The notes under the pieces are model-generated. The model saw nothing but the letters and a program-made list of their open reading frames with translations, had not been told where the DNA came from and did no database searches. A stretch of DNA of 64,000 bases from the NCBI GenBank assembly GCA_035937905.1, contig DASZHK010000107.1, positions 536-64,535 on the forward strand, read 5' to 3'. The translations under genes were made by a program, and so were the position numbers. Every line of letters begins with the position of its first letter. The first letter of the stretch is position 1. This document shows, in pieces, positions 11,636 to 19,898 of this stretch. Source of the DNA: Acidimicrobiales bacterium (GTDB taxonomy: Bacteria > Actinomycetota > Acidimicrobiia > Acidimicrobiales > RAAP-2).

Positions 11636-13039
11636 TCATCGGAGATAGCCGTTGAGTCCGCGGCGTAGGAACTGGCCGTAGCCCTTGCGCCCCACGTACT
11701 GATCGTTCTCAATCACGACGGTTCCTCGCGACAGCACGGTCTTCACCTGACCTTTCACCACCATTCCTTCGTACGCCGAGTAGTCGACGTTCATGTGGTG
11801 GGTCTCAACCGAGATCGTGTGCGTGGCGTTCGGGTCGTAGAGCACGATGTCCGCGTCCGATCCCGGCGCGATGAGTCCCTTCTTTGGAAAGAGACCGAAC
11901 ATCCTCGCCGGCGTCGTGGCCGTGACGTCCACCCAACGCGCGAGGGAGATCTCGCCAAGGGCGACGCCTTGGAAGATCAAGTCGACCCGATGCTCGATCC
12001 CAGGGATGCCGTTGGGGATCTTTGAGAAGTCGCCCAGCCCGAGTTCCTTTTGCTCTTTGAAGCAAAAGGGGCAGTGATCCGTTGAGACGATGCTGAGGTC
12101 GTCGGTGCGAAGACCTCTCCAGAGATCGGCGTGGTGGTGCTCGGGTCGAAGTGGTGGCGAGCAGACGTACTTCGCGCCTTCGAATCCCTCGCGCGCGAGG
12201 TCGGCGTCCGAGAGGAACAGGTACTGGGGACAGGTCTCGGCGAAGACACTCTGTCCACGGTCCCTCGCCTCGATCACTTCGTCGAGCGCTTCGGCGGCGG
12301 ACAGGTGAACGATGTAGAGCGGCGCGTGCGTGACGAGCGCCAGTTGAATAGCGCGGTGCGTGGCCTCACCTTCGAGCGCCACCGGCCGGGTCAAGCCGTG
12401 GAATCGAGGACTGCCCTCCCCCCTCGCGAGCGCTTGTGCGACAAGTACGTCGATGGCGATCCCGTTTTCCGCGTGCATCATGATGGTCGCACCGTTCGAG
12501 GAAGCCTGCTGCATGGCTTGGGTGATCTCGCCGTCGGTGGAGTAAAAGACACCGGGGTAGGCCATGAACAACTTGAAACTCGACAAACCTTCGTCGACGA
12601 CGAGGTCCATCTCCTTTAGCGACGCCTCGTTCACGTCGGACACGATCATGTGAAAGCCGTAGTCGACCGCGCAGTTACCTTCCGCCTTCGCGTGCCACGC
12701 GTCGAGTCCCTCTCGCAAACTCTTACCTTTGGACTGAATCGCGAAGTCGATGACCGAAGTAGTACCGCCGAAGGCCGCCGCGCGCGTGCCCGTCTCGAAC
12801 GTGTCCACTGAGTGGGTGCCTCCAAAGGGCATCTCGAGGTGGGTGTGACCGTCAATCGCGCCGGGGATCACGTACTGACCACTGGCGTCGATGATGCGGT
12901 CCGCGCCGACGCGCCAGAGTTCTGACGTCGTCGTGCCCGGCCCGGCGAGTCCAACAATGACGTCACCGTCGATGAACACGTCGGCCGCGAAGGGACCGCT
13001 CGCGTTGATGACGGTGCCGCCACTGATCAAAGTCTTCAT
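11636..13039 (-). CDS. hydA: dihydropyrimidinase
   Basis: 'PGAIDGHTH', carbamylated-Lys 'SSFKLFMAY', 'MMHAENG', 'VSTDHCPF', 'PNGIPGIE'. Confidence 0.95.
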   Translation of the reverse strand: MKTLISGGTVINASGPFAADVFIDGDVIVGLAGPGTTTSELWRVGADRIIDASGQYVIPGAIDGHTHLEMPFGGTHSVDTFETGTRAAAFGGTTSVIDFAIQSKGKSLREGLDAWHAKAEGNCAVDYGFHMIVSDVNEASLKEMDLVVDEGLSSFKLFMAYPGVFYSTDGEITQAMQQASSNGATIMMHAENGIAIDVLVAQALARGEGSPRFHGLTRPVALEGEATHRAIQLALVTHAPLYIVHLSAAEALDEVIEARDRGQSVFAETCPQYLFLSDADLAREGFEGAKYVCSPPLRPEHHHADLWRGLRTDDLSIVSTDHCPFCFKEQKELGLGDFSKIPNGIPGIEHRVDLIFQGVALGEISLARWVDVTATTPARMFGLFPKKGLIAPGSDADIVLYDPNATHTISVETHHMNVDYSAYEGMVVKGQVKTVLSRGTVVIENDQYVGRKGYGQFLRRGLNGYLR

Positions 13040-13074
13040 GGAACGTTTCTGCTTTCTTTGAGTAACGGCGAGGA

Positions 13075-13935
13075 CTAGGGAGCGACCAAGCTTCCGTAAC
13101 TGTCAGGTCGTCGGTCACGGTAGAAGGCCCAAGTGTGACGGACCTCTTTCAAGACGCCGAGATCGAGGTCGCGCACGATCACCTCGTCGTCGGTGTCCGA
13201 CGCAGCGTCGCCGACGAGTTGACCCCGGGGATCGACGAAGTACGAGGATCCATAGAAGCTGTTGTCGCCGAGCTCTTCGACGCCGACGCGGTTGATGGCC
13301 CCGACGAAGTACTCGTTGGCGACGGCGGCGGCCGGCTGCTCGAGATTCCAAAGGTAGGCGGAGAGCCCGCGACTCGTCGCCGAGGGGTTGAAGACGATCT
13401 TCGCGCCCGCAAGTCCGAGGGCGCGCCACCCTTCGGGAAAGTGCCGGTCGTAACAGATGTAGACGCCGATGGGGCCGACGGCCGTCTGAAAGATGGGATA
13501 ACCGAGGTTGCCCGGGCGAAAGTAGAACTTCTCCCAGAAACCCTTCACCTGGGGAATGTGGTGCTTGCGGTACTTGCCCAAGTACGTCCCGTCGGCGTCG
13601 ATGACGATCGCAGTGTTGTAGAAGACGCCCTCTTGTTCCACCTCGTAGATCGGCACGACGAGCACCATGTGGGTCTCTCGGGCCAACGCCTGCATCAACT
13701 CCGTCGTAGGTCCCGGGATCGACTCGGTGTAGGCAAAGTACGAGGGGTCTTGGACCTGGCAGAAGTAGGGACCGTAGAAGAGCTCTTGAAAGCAGAGGAC
13801 CTGCGCTCCCTGGTTGGCCGCTTTTCGAGCCAGCGCCACGTTGGCGGCGATCATCGATTCCTTGTCGCCGGTCCACTTCGTCTGGACGAGGGCGGCGCGA
13901 ACGATCTCGGTGGTGGTATCCGCTGGAGTAGTCAT
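13075..13935 (-). CDS. nitrilase-family beta-ureidopropionase (N-carbamoyl-beta-alanine amidohydrolase)
   Basis: E-K-C triad: 'FQELF', 'YRKHHIP', 'ICYDRHFPE'; start moved to ATG 13935. Confidence 0.9.
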   Translation of the reverse strand: MTTPADTTTEIVRAALVQTKWTGDKESMIAANVALARKAANQGAQVLCFQELFYGPYFCQVQDPSYFAYTESIPGPTTELMQALARETHMVLVVPIYEVEQEGVFYNTAIVIDADGTYLGKYRKHHIPQVKGFWEKFYFRPGNLGYPIFQTAVGPIGVYICYDRHFPEGWRALGLAGAKIVFNPSATSRGLSAYLWNLEQPAAAVANEYFVGAINRVGVEELGDNSFYGSSYFVDPRGQLVGDAASDTDDEVIVRDLDLGVLKEVRHTWAFYRDRRPDSYGSLVAP

Positions 13936-14079
13936 TCGCTTCACCTCGAAGTTCAGTACAACGCGGACATGCCGTACGAAAATCTCCTGAGTCAAAGGTA
14001 CTTTCGACCAGATTCGGATACTAGACCCGAACGTGCCTCGCTTCGTACCTTCGCCGTCGCCTGGACGTAGGGTCAATCT

Positions 14080-14520
14080 ATGAACGTGAAACGACACGGC
14101 ATCGATCTCGGGTTCAAGGTGATGAACACCACGCACCGAGCGGTCCTACTCCTGAGCGCCGGCCGTGTAGGGCGATCGATCAAGGGCAAGCCCATGGTCG
14201 AATTACTGACCATCGGGCGAAAATCTGGAATGGTTCGATCCACCATGTTGTTGGCGCCCGTCGTCGACGGTGCTCGCGTCATCCTCGTCGCGTCCAAAGG
14301 TGGCGACGACCGCGACCCCGACTGGTATCGCAATCTCCTGGCTCATCCGGACGTCGAACTGACCATGAACGGCGAGCAACGTCCGATGCGTGCGCGCCCG
14401 GCGACGCTTGAGGAAGAAGGACAACTGTGGCCCCGGGTCGTCGAGTCGTACAAGGGTTACGCGACTTACCGTGAACGTACTACTCGCGACATCCCGCTCG
14501 TTGTCTGTGAGCCGCGCTAG
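14080..14520 (+). CDS. F420H2-dependent deazaflavin nitroreductase (DDN family)
   Basis: 'LLTIGRKSG..R', 'VASKGG...PDWYRNL..HP', 'TRDIPLV'; TAGGGT 6 nt before ATG. Confidence 0.9.
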   Translation: MNVKRHGIDLGFKVMNTTHRAVLLLSAGRVGRSIKGKPMVELLTIGRKSGMVRSTMLLAPVVDGARVILVASKGGDDRDPDWYRNLLAHPDVELTMNGEQRPMRARPATLEEEGQLWPRVVESYKGYATYRERTTRDIPLVVCEPR

Positions 14521-14841
14521 GAGTGCAATCGCTGCGTCTCTTTTGTTGAGGCAGTCTTCCGCACACTGTGATGGATGGATGAATTCGGACACGAAGATTC
14601 ACTTTGCTCGATCGCCACTTCACTGACGTTCAATTGAATGACTACGCCAAGATCATTTCGCGGAGACCTTAGAAGTTCCAGCTAGTGGTGAGGAACGTTC
14701 TCTCCGCACAAAGTGCCGAGAGAACGTTGAACTACTTCTAAACAAATTCGAAACCATCTCTCAGCCATCCAACAGCGCCTTCACATCACTCTCACAAATG
14801 CGCTCTCTACTCTAAGAACTGTTCCTGTGAAGGGAGAACAT

Positions 14842-15585
14842 ATGAAGCACCTAACTACAAAATCCATGGCAGTGTTCACACTCGTCGCCGCCATGGGCAT
14901 CAGCATCCCAGCCGTTGCGTACGCGGGCTCACCGCCTTCGTCGGGAGCCAACTCAACGCCAGCCGATTCAAGCGCAAGCTTCCTCACAGCACAAAAGGCT
15001 CTCGAGCTTCAACTTGCTAATCGCGCCACACAACTTCAGCACCTCGTCACCGACGTCACCGCAGCGACGTCGCTCAACGCAAGTGCTTCGACGACGCTGC
15101 AAGCACGTCTGTTGACCGAGGAAGCAAGCATCAATTCGCTCGTCGCGAAGGTGCCAACGGACACGACCAGGGCTGAGCTCAACACGGACCGCAACGCGAT
15201 GCTCAAGGACAACCGCGTGTACGCCGTGATGTCTCCACAGGTGTTCGAAATGATCGAAGCATCGGTGGTGGCGAATCAGGTCGTGACGCTGCAGGGAAAT
15301 GAGGCGACACTCCAGTCGGAGGTCGCGTCCATCTTGGGTCTTCCGGGCTACAAGAACGCGCTTAACCACTACGACAATTACGTCGCTCGCCTTTCCAACT
15401 GGTCAACAAGGATCGTGAACATTGAGGCGATCGTGCTCGCCCAGACGCCGCAGGGTTACCCCGGTAACACCAAGTCGTTCGTCGCCGAGAATCACGCCAT
15501 CCTCGAAGCGAACATTGCCCTTTCATACGCTTCATACGACGCGAGCATCATTGGTCTCGCGACGGGCGGTTACACCGGCGCGTAG
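14842..15585 (+). CDS. secreted helical hypothetical protein
   Basis: Sec-type signal peptide, S/P-rich linker, amphipathic helices; AAGGGAG upstream of ATG 14842. Confidence 0.8.
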   Translation: MKHLTTKSMAVFTLVAAMGISIPAVAYAGSPPSSGANSTPADSSASFLTAQKALELQLANRATQLQHLVTDVTAATSLNASASTTLQARLLTEEASINSLVAKVPTDTTRAELNTDRNAMLKDNRVYAVMSPQVFEMIEASVVANQVVTLQGNEATLQSEVASILGLPGYKNALNHYDNYVARLSNWSTRIVNIEAIVLAQTPQGYPGNTKSFVAENHAILEANIALSYASYDASIIGLATGGYTGA

Positions 15586-15618
15586 GACGTGACGCTTGAA
15601 CTGAAACATTGAAATCCG

Positions 15619-15658
15619 AATATGGCGGTTGGTGGCATAGGTCATCAACCGCCATATT
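15619..15658. terminator. hairpin between convergent secreted-protein gene and tRNA-Arg
   Basis: AATATGGCGGTTG ... CAACCGCCATATT 13-bp perfect inverted repeat. Confidence 0.7.
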
Positions 15659-15720
15659 TGAATTCGCTTCAACCTTTGACATCGGCACACACAGACGACG
15701 TTCTTATAACTGAGGGAGAT

Positions 15721-15751
15721 GGCCTTGGCCCCACCTATTGGGGTCAAGGCC
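15721..15751 (-). terminator. hairpin immediately 3' of tRNA-Arg
   Basis: GGCCTTGGCCCCA-cctat-TGGGGTCAAGGCC, 13-bp stem with one mismatch/wobble. Confidence 0.65.
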
Positions 15752-15754
15752 AGT

Positions 15755-15829
15755 TGGTGCCCCCGGCAGGATTCGAACCTGCGCTCACGGTTTAGGAAAC
15801 CGATGCTCTATCCCCTGAGCTACGGGAGC
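15755..15829 (-). tRNA. tRNA-Arg(CCT)
   Basis: Cloverleaf GCTCCCG/CGGGGGC acceptor stem, anticodon loop TTCCTAA, TTCGAAT T-loop, encoded CCA. Confidence 0.97.
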
Positions 15830-16035
15830 TTCGCCCTTTTGTTCCATTCTTGCATGCGTGTGCAGACACCGATTAATTGCTGAAAGGACTGTGATGTCAG
15901 TTCTCGCAAGCTTGGGCCACTTGGCCCTGGGCGGACCGCGCGCCCGCAGCGAAGTGTCGAGGAGCGAACAACGCCCCTGTGACATACCCTCTCAGGCGTA
16001 ATCTCCTTACGTATTTCAAGAAATTCAGCCAATGA

Positions 16036-16356
16036 TCACTCTGGACCATCTTCAACTGATGGAGCCGAGTCGATGAGACTTAGAATTTCTTTAAGTGAAG
16101 ATTCAACTTCCTTATCGTCGGTCTGTGCCAAAATTTCTTGTCGATGATCAATACGTGATGCATTCACAGTCTCGATTTTCAGCCACCGCCAACGTAACCT
16201 AGCGACCCAGACGTGATCCGATACGTCATCCAGATTGTTGATCAAACTCTTCAGGTCAGAACTAAGTTCATCGAGAGGTATCTGCCCATATTCAAATTCA
16301 ACGATTGCCTTTCTCAATAAATCGAGAAGGAACTTCTGCCGTTCAACGTCTATCAA
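16036..16356 (-). CDS. hypothetical acidic helical protein, putative polymorphic-toxin immunity protein
   Basis: 106 aa; TTG start overlaps TGA of upstream toxin-like stub; AT-rich. Confidence 0.65.
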   Translation of the reverse strand: MIDVERQKFLLDLLRKAIVEFEYGQIPLDELSSDLKSLINNLDDVSDHVWVARLRWRWLKIETVNASRIDHRQEILAQTDDKEVESSLKEILSLIDSAPSVEDGPE

Positions 16357-16454
16357 TGTGGATTCAACGCTCCCCTTGAAACCGTAATGATTTTTCCGTC
16401 TTGTGAGACGACACTTATGTTGTTTTGGTCACTGTAATGAATGACCGGCGCTCT
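16353..16454 (-). pseudogene. start-less C-terminal fragment resembling a polymorphic toxin tip
   Basis: Manual translation RAPVIHYSDQNNISVVSQDGKIITVSRGALNPH*; bounded upstream by in-frame TAG at 16455-16457. Confidence 0.5.
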
Positions 16455-16500
16455 CTAGCGGTCAGCAGGTAAGACTAAGTCGCTGTACCATACTCCGAGC

Positions 16501-17046
16501 ATGCTTGATATCACTCACGGCGAATGGGTTGAGCTGCACTTGGGCGTTGTTGGCTCTCCATCGGGTAGCGGATTGGTCCTTCTTGACGGCGACGAGGACG
16601 AAACCCGCGTCGTATTCAGAGGGTACGCGCCTGACTTTGAATCAGACGATCGGCGTGAGGCGTTGGCCATCATCACGGCGAAAAGGTGTCTGCAAAGCGT
16701 CTTCGGCTATCCGAATGAGGAAGCCTATTGGCTTGACGAGCGCGGAAGTCTAGGAATCGGAATTTACGAACTCATAGGCTCGATGTGGGCCGAAAATGTT
16801 GCGATCTTCAATGACCGCACATATTGGCGTGACAAGCAGGAGCATCGGGATTTCTTGGCAAGCCACGGCATCTCCGAAATGGGACCTATTCACTCAAGTC
16901 AGCTGCGGCACTTCTTCATTGGATCAAAGGACTCCTCTGTTCAGTTGCTGGCCGAGGAGTTGCTGGTCGAAATCATCGATGGTAAGTCATTCGGTGAAGT
17001 CATCAGCGAAGCGGTTCATCGAATGCTGAATTCGACGTGCGACTAA
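16501..17046 (+). CDS. hypothetical protein ('FGYPNEE...LRHFF' family)
   Basis: 181 aa, CATACT 6 nt before ATG (leaderless), natural acidic composition. Confidence 0.7.
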   Translation: MLDITHGEWVELHLGVVGSPSGSGLVLLDGDEDETRVVFRGYAPDFESDDRREALAIITAKRCLQSVFGYPNEEAYWLDERGSLGIGIYELIGSMWAENVAIFNDRTYWRDKQEHRDFLASHGISEMGPIHSSQLRHFFIGSKDSSVQLLAEELLVEIIDGKSFGEVISEAVHRMLNSTCD

Positions 17047-17308
17047 TCAGTGAATCCCTATCGCTCCCGACCGCACGTATCTAAGGCGCCAGTGGAAGGT
17101 GGCAGACCTGGCATGTCGACTCTCCGACAGTAACCCGCACCCACTACAAAAGCCAGCACAACCTCAGCACAACATTTGTTGAGAACGGTGGCGAAGGGTG
17201 AAGTACAATTGACACTCTTGGCTTGCACCGAAGTAGCGCTTCATCAGCAGTTTTGGCTAAACAAACGGGATCGGGCATCGCCTCAATCAGGCTGCCAATA
17301 CAACTTTT

Positions 17309-17342
17309 GAAACCGATGCACTCTCCCCTGGGCTACGGGAGC
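17309..17342 (-). pseudogene. displaced 5' half of tRNA-Arg(CCT) (att-like remnant)
   Basis: GCTCCCGTAGCCCAGGGGAGAGTGCATCGGTTTC vs tRNA GCTCCCGTAGCTCAGGGGATAGAGCATCGGTTTC (3 mismatches); ends at tRNA position 34. Confidence 0.85.
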
Positions 17343-17584
17343 AGTCTCCATTATCTCAACCCTTTTGCGAGACGTGAAAATGGTTGTGAAGCAGTTCCAA
17401 GGTACAGGCGGATTCGTGAGTCGTCCTTTATTTCCAACAACAGGTGGACGCGTTGATGGCATTCGCATCAATTCGGTCAAATTCTGACGTCGTACCATCA
17501 TGGTGATTGCGAAAACCGAGTCAGTCGGGCCGAACCAGATCAGATCCGACGTCCCACGTGACGCAGCACGCGAAAAGGAGAACC

Positions 17585-18223
17585 ATGTTCGAACGATTCA
17601 CTGACCGATCCCGGCGAGTACTCGTACTCGCGCAAGAAGACGTACGTGAACTCAACCACGACTTCATCGGTACTGAACACGTGTTGCTCGGGCTGATCCG
17701 TGAAGGTGATGGAATCGCCGCAAAGACGCTCAGTGCCGCAGGTGTTAATTACGACGCGGTTCTCAAGAAGGTTGAGGAGCGGCTGACCCGCAGCTCCGAC
17801 CCATCGCCTGGTGCACCACCATTCACGGAGCGAGCGAAGAAAGTACTGGAGCTGTCGCTTCGTGAAGCCATGCAGCTTGGTCACAACTACATAGGCACGG
17901 AACACTTGCTGCTCGGACTCCTTCGAGAGGGAAGTGGAGTGGCGACCCAGATCCTCCGTGAGCTCGATGTCGAACTGACACATGTCCGTGAGAAGGTCAT
18001 CGAGATGATGTCGGGTCAAAGTGGGAGTGTGTCTAGCGGTTCACGGACATCGGGGCAATCTGATTTTCAAATTCTCTTCGGCGTCGTGCGCAGGACCGGT
18101 CAACAGTTGCGTCCCGACCTTGGTTCACCCGAGTTTTCCGAGCGAGCAGCGAAGATTGCCGATGCTCTCTTCAACCAACTCCGTAAGGACTGGATCGCAC
18201 CTGACGACCCCCTTGAACCGTAA
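17585..18223 (+). CDS. Clp N-terminal domain-only protein (ClpC2-like)
   Basis: 'MFERFTDRSRRVLVLAQE', two 'H.YIGTEH.LLGL'-type repeats, no AAA+ domain; AAAGGAG before ATG 17585. Confidence 0.88.
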   Translation: MFERFTDRSRRVLVLAQEDVRELNHDFIGTEHVLLGLIREGDGIAAKTLSAAGVNYDAVLKKVEERLTRSSDPSPGAPPFTERAKKVLELSLREAMQLGHNYIGTEHLLLGLLREGSGVATQILRELDVELTHVREKVIEMMSGQSGSVSSGSRTSGQSDFQILFGVVRRTGQQLRPDLGSPEFSERAAKIADALFNQLRKDWIAPDDPLEP

Positions 18224-18326
18224 CGCTGAGTGAAGCGGAATCCAATCCGCGCGAGACGAACCTCGAAATGAGATTTGGCACCACTGCGTTTTCTTGGTGG
18301 AACCCTTATGCGCGTAACGTCGCGAC

Positions 18327-19898
18327 GTGGCAGCAAACTCATCGTTGAACCGACGAACTTTCCTTAAACGGCTGCTCCAGGTGTCGGCCCTGTCGTCGAC
18401 CGCGTTAGCCACGTCGCCACAGGGCCCAGATGGTGGTTCGCTGGCTGCGAGAGTGGCGAAGTTGAAAAGCCTGTCTTCGTCCGGGTGGAGAGAACTTTCT
18501 TCTTCCTTACGAGGTTCGCTCGTCTTGCCATCATCGCCCGGCTACGCAACGAGAGCCCTGCTGTATAACTCGAGATTCGCCAACCTAAAACCGGCCGCGA
18601 TTGCCTACTGTCAAGGCTCGGATGACGTCGCCGCGTGCCTCGACTTCGTCGTAAAGCACGACCTTCCCTTCACGACGCGCTCGGGTGGCCATAGTTACGG
18701 CGGCTACTCCAGCTCTCCGGGTCTCGTCATCGACGTCAGTCGACTCGTGACCATTGACGTTGACGCACAAGCAAAAACGGCCAAGGTTGGCACCGGCGCG
18801 CGACTCATCGACGTCTACAACACGCTCGATCACCACGGGCTCGTCCTGCCAGGTGGCACCTGTCCCACGGTGGGCATCGCCGGCTCGACAATGGGCGGCG
18901 GTGTCGGTGTGTTGGCGCGAAAGTTCGGTCTTACCTGCGATCACCTCATCGGCTCTCGTCTCGTCACCGCCTCTGGTGACCATATTGTCGCCAACGCCGA
19001 TCACCACGCAGACCTCTTGTGGGCAGTGAAGGGAGGCGGCGGCGGAAACTTTGCCATCGCGACCTCGTTCGAGTTCGAGTTGGATCCGATGCCACCCACC
19101 ACGCTGTTCTCGTTGCAGTATCCCTGGAGCGAAGCGGCCGCCGTGCTCGAGGGATGGCAACAGTGGATCAATGCCCAACCCGATGAACTGTGGTCGACCT
19201 GCCAACTCTTCTCCCAAGGTACGGCCGGCTTCCTCGTTCAAGTAAACGGTGTCTTCTGTGGTCCTGAACGCGCTCTCGATACGCACCTGGCTTCGCTCCG
19301 GTCGCTGGTTGGCACTGCGTCGTCGACGTTCGTGGGCGCCGACGCTTACCTTGAGGCGATGAAGATCGAGGCCGGCTGTTCAAAGCTCACCGTCGTCGCG
19401 TGTCACCTCGCCGGTGACGGGCCTGGTGGACTTCTTGGCCACGAGGCCTACGCCGCAAAATCTTCCTACGTCACCACGCCGAACACTCGAGGTCGTACCA
19501 GTGAGTGGGTTCACGCCGTCGAAGTGCTGGCCGCCGAGGCCCCGTACGTGGGCGGGGGCCTGTCGTTTGACTCCTACGGCGGCGCCATAAACCGCGTCGC
19601 GAGGGACGCGACGGCCTTCGTGCACCGCGACAAACTCGCGGGCGTCCAGGCCGCGTACTCCTGGGGAACCCACTCATCGAGTGACGAGATCGCGGCGGGA
19701 GATCGTTGGCTTCGATGGTTGGGCAGTGAAGTCTTTGACGCGCGTGCCGGGGCCTATCAGAATTACATCGATCCGACACTCCGCAATTGGCAAGACGCCT
19801 ATTACGGAGCAAACTTTGACCGACTCATTCGCGTGAAGAACATCTATGACCCCGACAATCGATTCTCGTTCGCTCAGTCAATTCCTCTGCGTCGCTAA
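18327..19898 (+). CDS. Tat-exported FAD-binding oxidoreductase, berberine-bridge-enzyme-like
   Basis: 'NRRTFLK' Tat motif; 'RSGGHSY', 'GTCPTVG', C-terminal 'YQNYID...AYYGANF.RL..VK..YDPDNRF'. Confidence 0.88.
   Translation: MAANSSLNRRTFLKRLLQVSALSSTALATSPQGPDGGSLAARVAKLKSLSSSGWRELSSSLRGSLVLPSSPGYATRALLYNSRFANLKPAAIAYCQGSDDVAACLDFVVKHDLPFTTRSGGHSYGGYSSSPGLVIDVSRLVTIDVDAQAKTAKVGTGARLIDVYNTLDHHGLVLPGGTCPTVGIAGSTMGGGVGVLARKFGLTCDHLIGSRLVTASGDHIVANADHHADLLWAVKGGGGGNFAIATSFEFELDPMPPTTLFSLQYPWSEAAAVLEGWQQWINAQPDELWSTCQLFSQGTAGFLVQVNGVFCGPERALDTHLASLRSLVGTASSTFVGADAYLEAMKIEAGCSKLTVVACHLAGDGPGGLLGHEAYAAKSSYVTTPNTRGRTSEWVHAVEVLAAEAPYVGGGLSFDSYGGAINRVARDATAFVHRDKLAGVQAAYSWGTHSSSDEIAAGDRWLRWLGSEVFDARAGAYQNYIDPTLRNWQDAYYGANFDRLIRVKNIYDPDNRFSFAQSIPLRR

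Follow-up and report, generated by a model that had tools for sequence, protein, structure and literature searches.

A toxin-gene remnant and an intact gene for a probable neutraliser of an uncatalogued family in an islet at tRNA-Arg(CCT) of an Acidimicrobiales genome

Layout of the locus and of the tRNA-Arg(CCT) islet

We analysed a stretch of 64,000 nucleotides from an Acidimicrobiales bacterium (contig DASZHK010000107.1), called the window here at its full length. The features that concern us, numbered from the first base of the window, are the following:

15755–15829, minus strand: complete tRNA-Arg(CCT) gene, present once in the assembly and lying 206 nt 3' of the 106-aa gene on the same strand
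16036–16356, minus strand: intact gene for a 106-aa acidic protein of a predicted four-helix-bundle immunity (neutraliser) family, with the conserved residues of that family
16353–16356, minus strand: TTGA overlap between the toxin stop TGA and the immunity start TTG, an NTGA geometry kept in relatives
16353–16454, minus strand: 3' stub of a toxin gene, 33 sense codons plus TGA, recognised by a profile match and BLASTP
16370–16377, minus strand: putative Shine-Dalgarno-like sequence AAGGGGAG inside the stub, read from the sequence
16455–16475, no strand: breakpoint interval between the TAG that closes the stub and the first base homologous to the cassette, marked by a step in GC
16476–17118, plus strand: 643-bp cassette with a 181-aa ORF (16501–17046), delimited by DNA homology to copies elsewhere
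17309–17342, minus strand: displaced tRNA 5' half, a 34-nt direct repeat of 15796–15829 with 91% identity
17350–17378, minus strand: putative sigma-70-like promoter match, the only one in 15700–17500, just upstream of the displaced tRNA half

A preliminary description of this DNA had reported a minus-strand frame without a start codon whose TGA overlaps the TTG of a 106-aa acidic gene, and this is what we found. The frame opens after a TAG at 16457–16455, runs for 33 sense codons to the TGA at 16355–16353 and contains no ATG, GTG or TTG from which a gene of that length could start, which is why it was missing from the ORF listing. The 106-aa ORF begins with the TTG at 16356–16354, and the sequence TTGA is common to the stop of the stub and the start of the ORF. 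Its product is indeed acidic, with a pI of 4.57 and 23 Asp and Glu against 13 Lys and Arg. The distance from AAGGGGAG to the TTG start is 13 nt, longer than the optimal spacing. Both stub and gene are unusually poor in GC (44.9% and 43.3%, respectively) when compared with the 61.4% of the window. The predicted RNA structure at the stub/start region showed nothing special (z = −1.15), and searches of Pfam, NCBIfam and PADLOC returned no match for either the stub or the 106-aa protein.

The 34-nt direct repeats bound an islet of ~1.5 kb with foreign GC. Its flanks are held in common with 20 relatives of the genus that were searched by DNA, and its core is absent from all 20. A genome of the same genus (G780; locus L038, G780:C45:29800-38200) carries two tandem islands at tRNA-Arg(CCT) with additional copies of the tRNA 5' half between them; the first island encodes a tyrosine integrase and a TPR protein, and the second an SBF-type transporter. 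At the same tRNA of another genome, G776 (L039), the site is nearly empty. From the integrase-bearing island in G780 and the near-empty site in G776 we conclude that tRNA-Arg(CCT) is a recurrent 'mirror-image' integration hotspot in this genus, and that the islet, with no integrase left within the window, is probably an integrase-less remnant at this hotspot. The preliminary description had placed an orphan immunity cassette in a tRNA island; the 34-nt repeat, the strain-specific islet and the occupied site in G780 agree with that placement. Apart from the tRNA, the search for RNA families in the region gave no hit. A 14-bp hairpin lies 3' of the complete tRNA (15720–15752), and the promoter match is ~1.5 kb away from the complete tRNA.

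The start-less frame, the toxin tips and the breakpoint

By BLASTP, the stub aligned with the C-terminus of a toxin encoded upstream of a homologue of the immunity gene (L010; 47% identity over 30 aa, E 3e-6, in register to the end) and with the tip of a same-order relative (L028; 54% identity over 28 aa without gaps, E 3e-10). We also built a tip HMM from eight intact tips, leaving the stub out, and ran it with all filters off on the six-frame segments of at least 20 aa from the entire 2.37-Mb genome (n = 59,200). The sole significant match in the genome was the stub (E 6.5e-6), whose residues 4–31 (16362–16445) align to positions 54–82 of the 83-position profile. The match runs in register up to the stop, and both the syntenic position and the four-base overlap agree with those of the tips. 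At their ends the intact tips have the motif '..F/Y-Y-D/S-..-N-N-I/V-S-V-V-..-G-.-I/V-V/I-T-V-S/T-.-G-....stop'.

Over the 30 shared columns the stub is 43–53% identical to the intact tips, and the intact tip of the same-order relative is 40–53% identical to the mycobacterial ones. Since the stub lies in the same range of identity as intact tips do among themselves, it shows no extra decay. A 33-codon open frame is meaningless on its own, and it is the homology that lifts the stub above chance. On these comparisons, the start-less minus-strand frame 16353–16454 is the 3' end of a toxin gene, as the preliminary description had supposed when it called it a toxin C-terminal stub and proposed similarity to toxin tips as the check.

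The best Pfam hit of every intact tip was DUF4258 (PF14076), with 16–22 bits and E-values from 2e-4 to 1e-2 that do not reach the gathering score of 25 bits. When compared by hhalign, the tip profile matched with a probability of 96% a Gemmatimonas toxin (L027) that is itself a DUF4258 match from end to end and has a gene for an MqsA-like antitoxin next to it. The helix 'F-S-G-H-A-L-D-E-M' is common to the intact tips and to this DUF4258/MqsA-type toxin of a toxin-antitoxin (TA) pair. The AlphaFold2 model of an intact tip (pLDDT 83.9) consists of a short strand, a helix that starts from an invariant His, a second helix and four strands. This order of elements, pre-alpha, alpha and beta1–beta4, is the one described for colicin-like BECR RNases in a preprint (10.64898/2026.08.28.747851), which places DUF4258, equivalent to Ntox49, in the colicin-like BECR group and states that the characterised toxins of this group mostly cleave tRNAs, and often a single isoacceptor. 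The intact tips have His22 and Arg42 without exception; the conserved residues given for Ntox49 are 'H, [KR]' (PMC3482391). Elsewhere DUF4258 toxins are presented as typical type II TA toxins, and the family itself as uncharacterised (Gerdes 2025, PMC11980606).

We regard the tips as DUF4258/Ntox49-like, their Pfam matches being below threshold but consistent, and by analogy with the colicin-like group the lost toxin was presumably an RNase. The preliminary description had likened a few residues of the stub to the last strands of small Rhs/colicin-E5-like RNase tips; given the placement of DUF4258/Ntox49-like tips in the colicin-like BECR branch, the resemblance is right at the level of the superfamily. 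Neither a PDB sequence search with the tip profile nor a tblastn search of the tip against phage records returned a relative.

On the model of the intact tip, the stub accounts for the last two strands, beta3 and beta4, and for part of beta2. It starts past the region of His22 and Arg42 and so has neither residue. The helix of the catalytic His is absent from it, and the stub is therefore unable to encode an active enzyme. No full-length toxin was found elsewhere in the 94%-complete genome with a protein search, the tip HMM or a PF14076 search.

Upstream of the stub lies the 643-bp cassette. Copies of it are present at unrelated places in related genomes with a DNA identity of 77–81%, and their homology to the window spans exactly 16476–17118; in some genomes the copy sits beside RHH-Fic, HicB and Phd genes. 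The GC content of the cassette is 53.5%, and the composition steps from ~44% to ~54% at the breakpoint. The start of the cassette homology at 16476 together with this step places the break in 16455–16475. A small, unrelated mobile cassette that is oriented divergently has thus taken the place of the toxin gene body. The breakpoint is mapped to no more than 21 bases, and it shows that the antidote gene outlived the replacement of its toxin by the cassette. We detected no repeats flanking the cassette. Its 181-aa protein had no match in Pfam, NCBIfam or PADLOC and no similarity to the neighbours of the family in immunity arrays.

The 106-aa family and its genomic company

A word-index search with the 106-aa protein returned only the query, and an exhaustive phmmer search was needed to reveal its family. 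Among 1.84 billion representatives, 51 proteins were found at E ≤ 1e-3, nearly all of them 85–125 aa long. The members align from end to end; W50, W58, E62 and A66 are nearly invariant among them, and all four are present in the protein of the window. The homologue P0047 begins at the residue equivalent to the start in the window, which supports the TTG as start codon of the 106-aa ORF. The AlphaFold2 model built from 24 family members is a four-helix bundle (pLDDT 90.5), a plain one with no helix-turn-helix or other DNA-binding domain, and Foldseek with the model of the 106-aa protein returned generic helical bundles only (best E 0.19). No Pfam or NCBIfam model matches the immunity domain of the family members. 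Judging from the alignment and the model, the 106-aa ORF belongs to a real, uncatalogued family of ~100-aa proteins with a predicted four-helix-bundle fold.

The nearest homologues of the window's protein are P0028–P0036 (34–50% identity), while its identity to the mycobacterial members is 23–29%. The family is rare and sporadic: it was present in 3 of 400 other sampled genomes of the phylum and in 2 of 400 genomes of the class, and a single one of 201 genomes from another actinobacterial family had it. A profile search of 13 genomes of the same genus found it in none, and the search for related loci in the metagenome_contigs set with alignment A5 gave no relative.

Membership in the colicin D immunity family (PF09204, Colicin_immun) was considered for these proteins and rejected. 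None of the 75 family members (51 + 24) matches it, not even the two with that name in UniRef; against a PF09204 member, hhalign gave a probability of 0.4%; ImmD is not among the top Foldseek matches; and generic helical bundles were all that the PDB profile search and Foldseek produced.

We counted linkage over the 13 distinct loci that were reached via the immunity protein, leaving out P0028–P0036. An intact tip lies directly upstream with an NTGA overlap in six of them and a frameshifted tip in one, and the remaining six are toxin-less. Of these toxin-less loci, four have further immunity or toxin genes beside them, for instance Barstar genes or an Rhs array. The homologues of the 106-aa gene are thus linked to toxins, which the preliminary description had named as the neighbourhood to look for, and the coupled layout of toxin tip and immunity gene that it had recognised in the window is kept in the intact pairs of relatives. 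The overlap is TTGA in L015, L016, L020, L022 and L024, ATGA in L010, L025 and L028, and GTGA in L042.

The mycobacterial loci carry the tip on a PPE protein. In Mycobacterium gastri, M. persicum and several metagenomic contigs the family gene lies directly 3' of a PPE gene (583–696 aa) with an overlap of 4 bases, and the PPE gene is preceded by a ~100-aa gene in the usual position of a PE gene. A search with the C-terminal tip of the PPE protein found M. innocens, M. angelicum, M. ahvazicum and M. simiae, with the family gene adjoining the tip in each, and the immunity gene is adjacent in all five mycobacterial loci reached via the tip. PE-PPE(tip)-immunity operons with the 4-nt overlap are present in M. 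gastri, M. innocens, M. angelicum, M. ahvazicum and metagenomic contigs. The PPE-borne tip of M. persicum (L009:4754-5001) and that of M. simiae (L026:65-312) are frameshifted at about the same place, where the profile match splits at positions 41–50, and the immunity gene is intact in both; this looks like repeated inactivation of the toxin with the antidote kept.

Other members have different company. In G625, a relative of the same order, an intact tip and a family gene with an ATGA overlap lie beside an XRE regulator, a DnaG-type primase and a tyrosine integrase, neighbours that mark the pair as cargo of an integrative element. In L010 the family gene follows an intact tip and has a Colicin_immun gene just downstream. 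Toxin-less family genes stand next to Barstar genes in L012, L017 and L018; in L029 the family gene is alone, and in L013 it is toxin-less and fused to a second domain. Fusion proteins of 226–259 aa (L013:1114-1884 on the minus strand, P0037, P0056 and P0057) join an N-terminal immunity domain to a second, unrelated domain, which in one of them matches DUF6678, and they resemble poly-immunity proteins.

By analogy, this distribution is the pattern of a polymorphic-toxin immunity family in the sense of Zhang et al. (2012, PMC3482391), who describe toxin cassettes and polyimmunity loci. An immunity gene directly 3' of the tip and on the same strand is found in the window and in nine loci of relatives. 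A tip on a carrier for secretion or delivery is found in the mycobacteria, where the carrier is the PPE protein, and not in the window, where the carrier is gone. Polyimmunity loci (L010, L012, L017, L018 and L040) and fusions (L013, P0037, P0056 and P0057) occur as well.

Origin of the relic and fate of the orphan gene

We interpret the locus as very probably the relic of a two-gene toxin/neutraliser module that arrived at tRNA-Arg(CCT) as cargo of an integrative element. The toxin would have been a small C-terminal tip of ~75–83 aa of the DUF4258/Ntox49-like, colicin-type BECR RNase kind, and the neutraliser a ~100-aa acidic four-helix bundle that would bind and block it. In intact modules the NTGA overlap would couple the translation of both genes. 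Here, the 643-bp cassette has replaced everything upstream of the last 30–33 codons of the toxin; with the conserved-His helix and the start codon removed, no toxin can be made. The neutraliser gene, intact and now an orphan, could serve only as a stand-alone antidote if it is expressed, and its targets might be tips of the same kind coming from neighbours or carried by a re-invading element, in which case it would act in anti-addiction. We infer both the neutralisation by binding and the present-day expression of the 106-aa gene, and we consider the latter doubtful on the evidence of the sequence.

Orphan or 'displaced' C-terminal tips with immunity genes are reported for Rhs and CdiA loci (Poole et al. 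2011). Like these orphan modules, the locus has a start-less 3' toxin fragment followed by an intact immunity gene, it is sporadic and strain-specific, and its family occurs in mixed immunity arrays and as fused poly-immunity proteins. Unlike them, it retains a tip of only ~30 codons, too short for a usable cassette; its genome has no Rhs, CdiA, WXG or PPE carrier; and the remnant sits in an integrase-less islet at a tRNA, not after a full toxin locus. Among the type VII-secreted polymorphic toxins, listed as 'T7SS (WXG, PPE)' in the tables of Zhang et al. (2012, PMC3482391), PPE/WXG100 toxins provide the nearest characterisable relatives of the pair, namely the PE-PPE(tip)-immunity operons of the Mycobacterium gastri/kansasii and simiae groups with the same overlap, but no WXG100 or EccB genes were found in the genome of the window. 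With respect to other DUF4258/Ntox49 toxins the difference is in the partner, a predicted four-helix bundle instead of Imm22 or an MqsA-like antitoxin.

The deployment of the module is a question apart from the identity of its genes. An addiction-type, toxin-antitoxin-like origin, with a stand-alone intracellular toxin of 83–89 aa and an antidote that stabilise an integrative element, would make the orphan a left-over antitoxin; it competes with a secreted toxin for the deployment only and not for the identity of the genes, and we give it a substantial chance that falls somewhat short of even. In the same-order relative (L028) there are stops just upstream of the tip and possible starts of its own at GTG 128 and ATG 146, and the 5.3-kb contig of the tip also encodes an XRE regulator, a primase and an integrase; as this contig starts 127 nt before the tip, a displaced orphan cassette would look the same there as a stand-alone gene. 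The genome of the window, at a completeness of 94%, yielded no WXG100, EccB or PPE-type carrier, and DUF4258 toxins are typically type II TA toxins (PMC11980606), of which L027 is an example. Against an addiction pair speak the neutraliser, which has no DNA-binding domain, and the presence of the same family behind PPE carriers and in Barstar, Colicin_immun and Rhs arrays, which is the signature of secreted polymorphic toxins. For this lineage in particular we consider an addiction-type pair about as likely as a secreted toxin with its immunity protein, because the genome has no WXG100, EccB or DUF4258 genes and because the tip of the closest taxon is carrier-less on an element with integrase and primase.

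Chromosomal orphan antitoxins reportedly can work as anti-addiction modules (Saavedra De Bast et al. 2008). The locus is like them in that a neutraliser is kept without its toxin, and by analogy it could protect against a related incoming element that bears the toxin.

Whatever the deployment, the 106-aa gene might be a silent relic that is intact only because the truncation is recent, neither expressed nor useful, and we take this to be a real prospect of slightly less than equal weight to its opposite. The promoter search gave no match between the cassette and the 106-aa gene; the start is a TTG, the Shine-Dalgarno-like site is 13 nt off and the upstream translation on which coupling would depend is gone. 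The decay of the stub does not exceed that of an intact orthologue, in keeping with a recent event, and the gene is strain-specific, absent from the genus relatives that were searched. On the other hand, all family-invariant residues are kept and the model is confident (pLDDT 90.5), and an intact immunity gene with its toxin lost or broken is a recurrent finding, as in M. persicum and M. simiae. In addition, the gene lies 206 nt upstream of the sole tRNA-Arg(CCT) on the same strand, and this position upstream of an indispensable tRNA makes transcription through it plausible.

Co-transcription with tRNA-Arg(CCT) is possible since the 106-aa gene has the same orientation and is enclosed by the tRNA gene and the displaced tRNA promoter, and the promoter match at 17378–17350 might, by conjecture from its sequence, be a source of read-through across the islet. 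The full opposite of silence, in which the orphan neutraliser is transcribed together with the indispensable tRNA-Arg(CCT) and is a standing antidote to colicin-like RNase tips, nevertheless seems unlikely to us. In that case the 106-aa family would be a new, uncatalogued immunity family that extends over free-living actinobacteria, mycobacterial PPE/type VII loci and chlamydial Rhs arrays.

The preliminary description had also speculated that, if the toxin were an anticodon nuclease, its location inside a tRNA anticodon loop would be meaningful. Colicin D is a tRNA-Arg anticodon nuclease with a four-helix-bundle immunity protein, ImmD (Graille et al. 2004, as cited in the preprint). The relic is like that system in combining a colicin-type BECR toxin with a small acidic helical-bundle neutraliser encoded just downstream, and unlike it in that no relation of sequence, profile or Foldseek match to the 106-aa family was detected. 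That the lost toxin was a tRNA-Arg anticodon nuclease of this kind, functionally tied to the anticodon-loop site, is very improbable, even though the characterised colicin-like BECR toxins mostly cut tRNAs (10.64898/2026.08.28.747851) and UniRef labels two mycobacterial family members 'Colicin D immunity protein domain-containing'. None of Pfam, hhalign, the PDB profile search and Foldseek reproduced that label; the same tRNA takes unrelated, integrase-bearing cargo in a genus relative; and over 71 nt the complete tRNA matches that of relatives lacking the module with 100% identity. The integration hotspot explains the location of the islet at the tRNA as the target of an integrase in the genus, and no anticodon nuclease is needed for it.

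The weakest alternative, that the stub is an open stretch of non-coding spacer and the 106-aa ORF spurious, draws on the lack of a start in the stub and of a Pfam, NCBIfam or PADLOC match for the protein, and has next to no chance in view of the genome-wide profile match (E 6.5e-6), the in-register end, the syntenic position and the shared overlap of the stub and of the 51 representatives and confident fold of the 106-aa family.

The relic itself, read as a toxin/neutraliser module that lost its toxin, is an ordinary product of toxin/immunity turnover. On this reading, a family with no Pfam or NCBIfam model is paired with a DUF4258/Ntox49-like tip that is PPE-borne in several Mycobacterium species, and the pairing offers a testable toxin-immunity pair for a predicted RNase family.

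We made three further observations on loci of the family. The chlamydial member (L040; E 2.8e-27 to the family profile) lies in an Rhs array on plasmid pPNK of Candidatus Protochlamydia naegleriophila (12979-19263), with two Rhs core proteins and small downstream genes, among them a duplicated 161-aa gene that is likely an immunity gene. L011:1554-3864 encodes a 364-aa protein, made up of a Gly-rich linker and a C-terminal domain, then a 125-aa protein and lastly a family member, all without Pfam hits; the arrangement resembles a different toxin and its putative immunity gene, to which an orphan immunity gene has been added. In M. angelicum (L024:5371-5638), a second immunity gene, broken into two frames, lies ~2 kb downstream of the intact pair.
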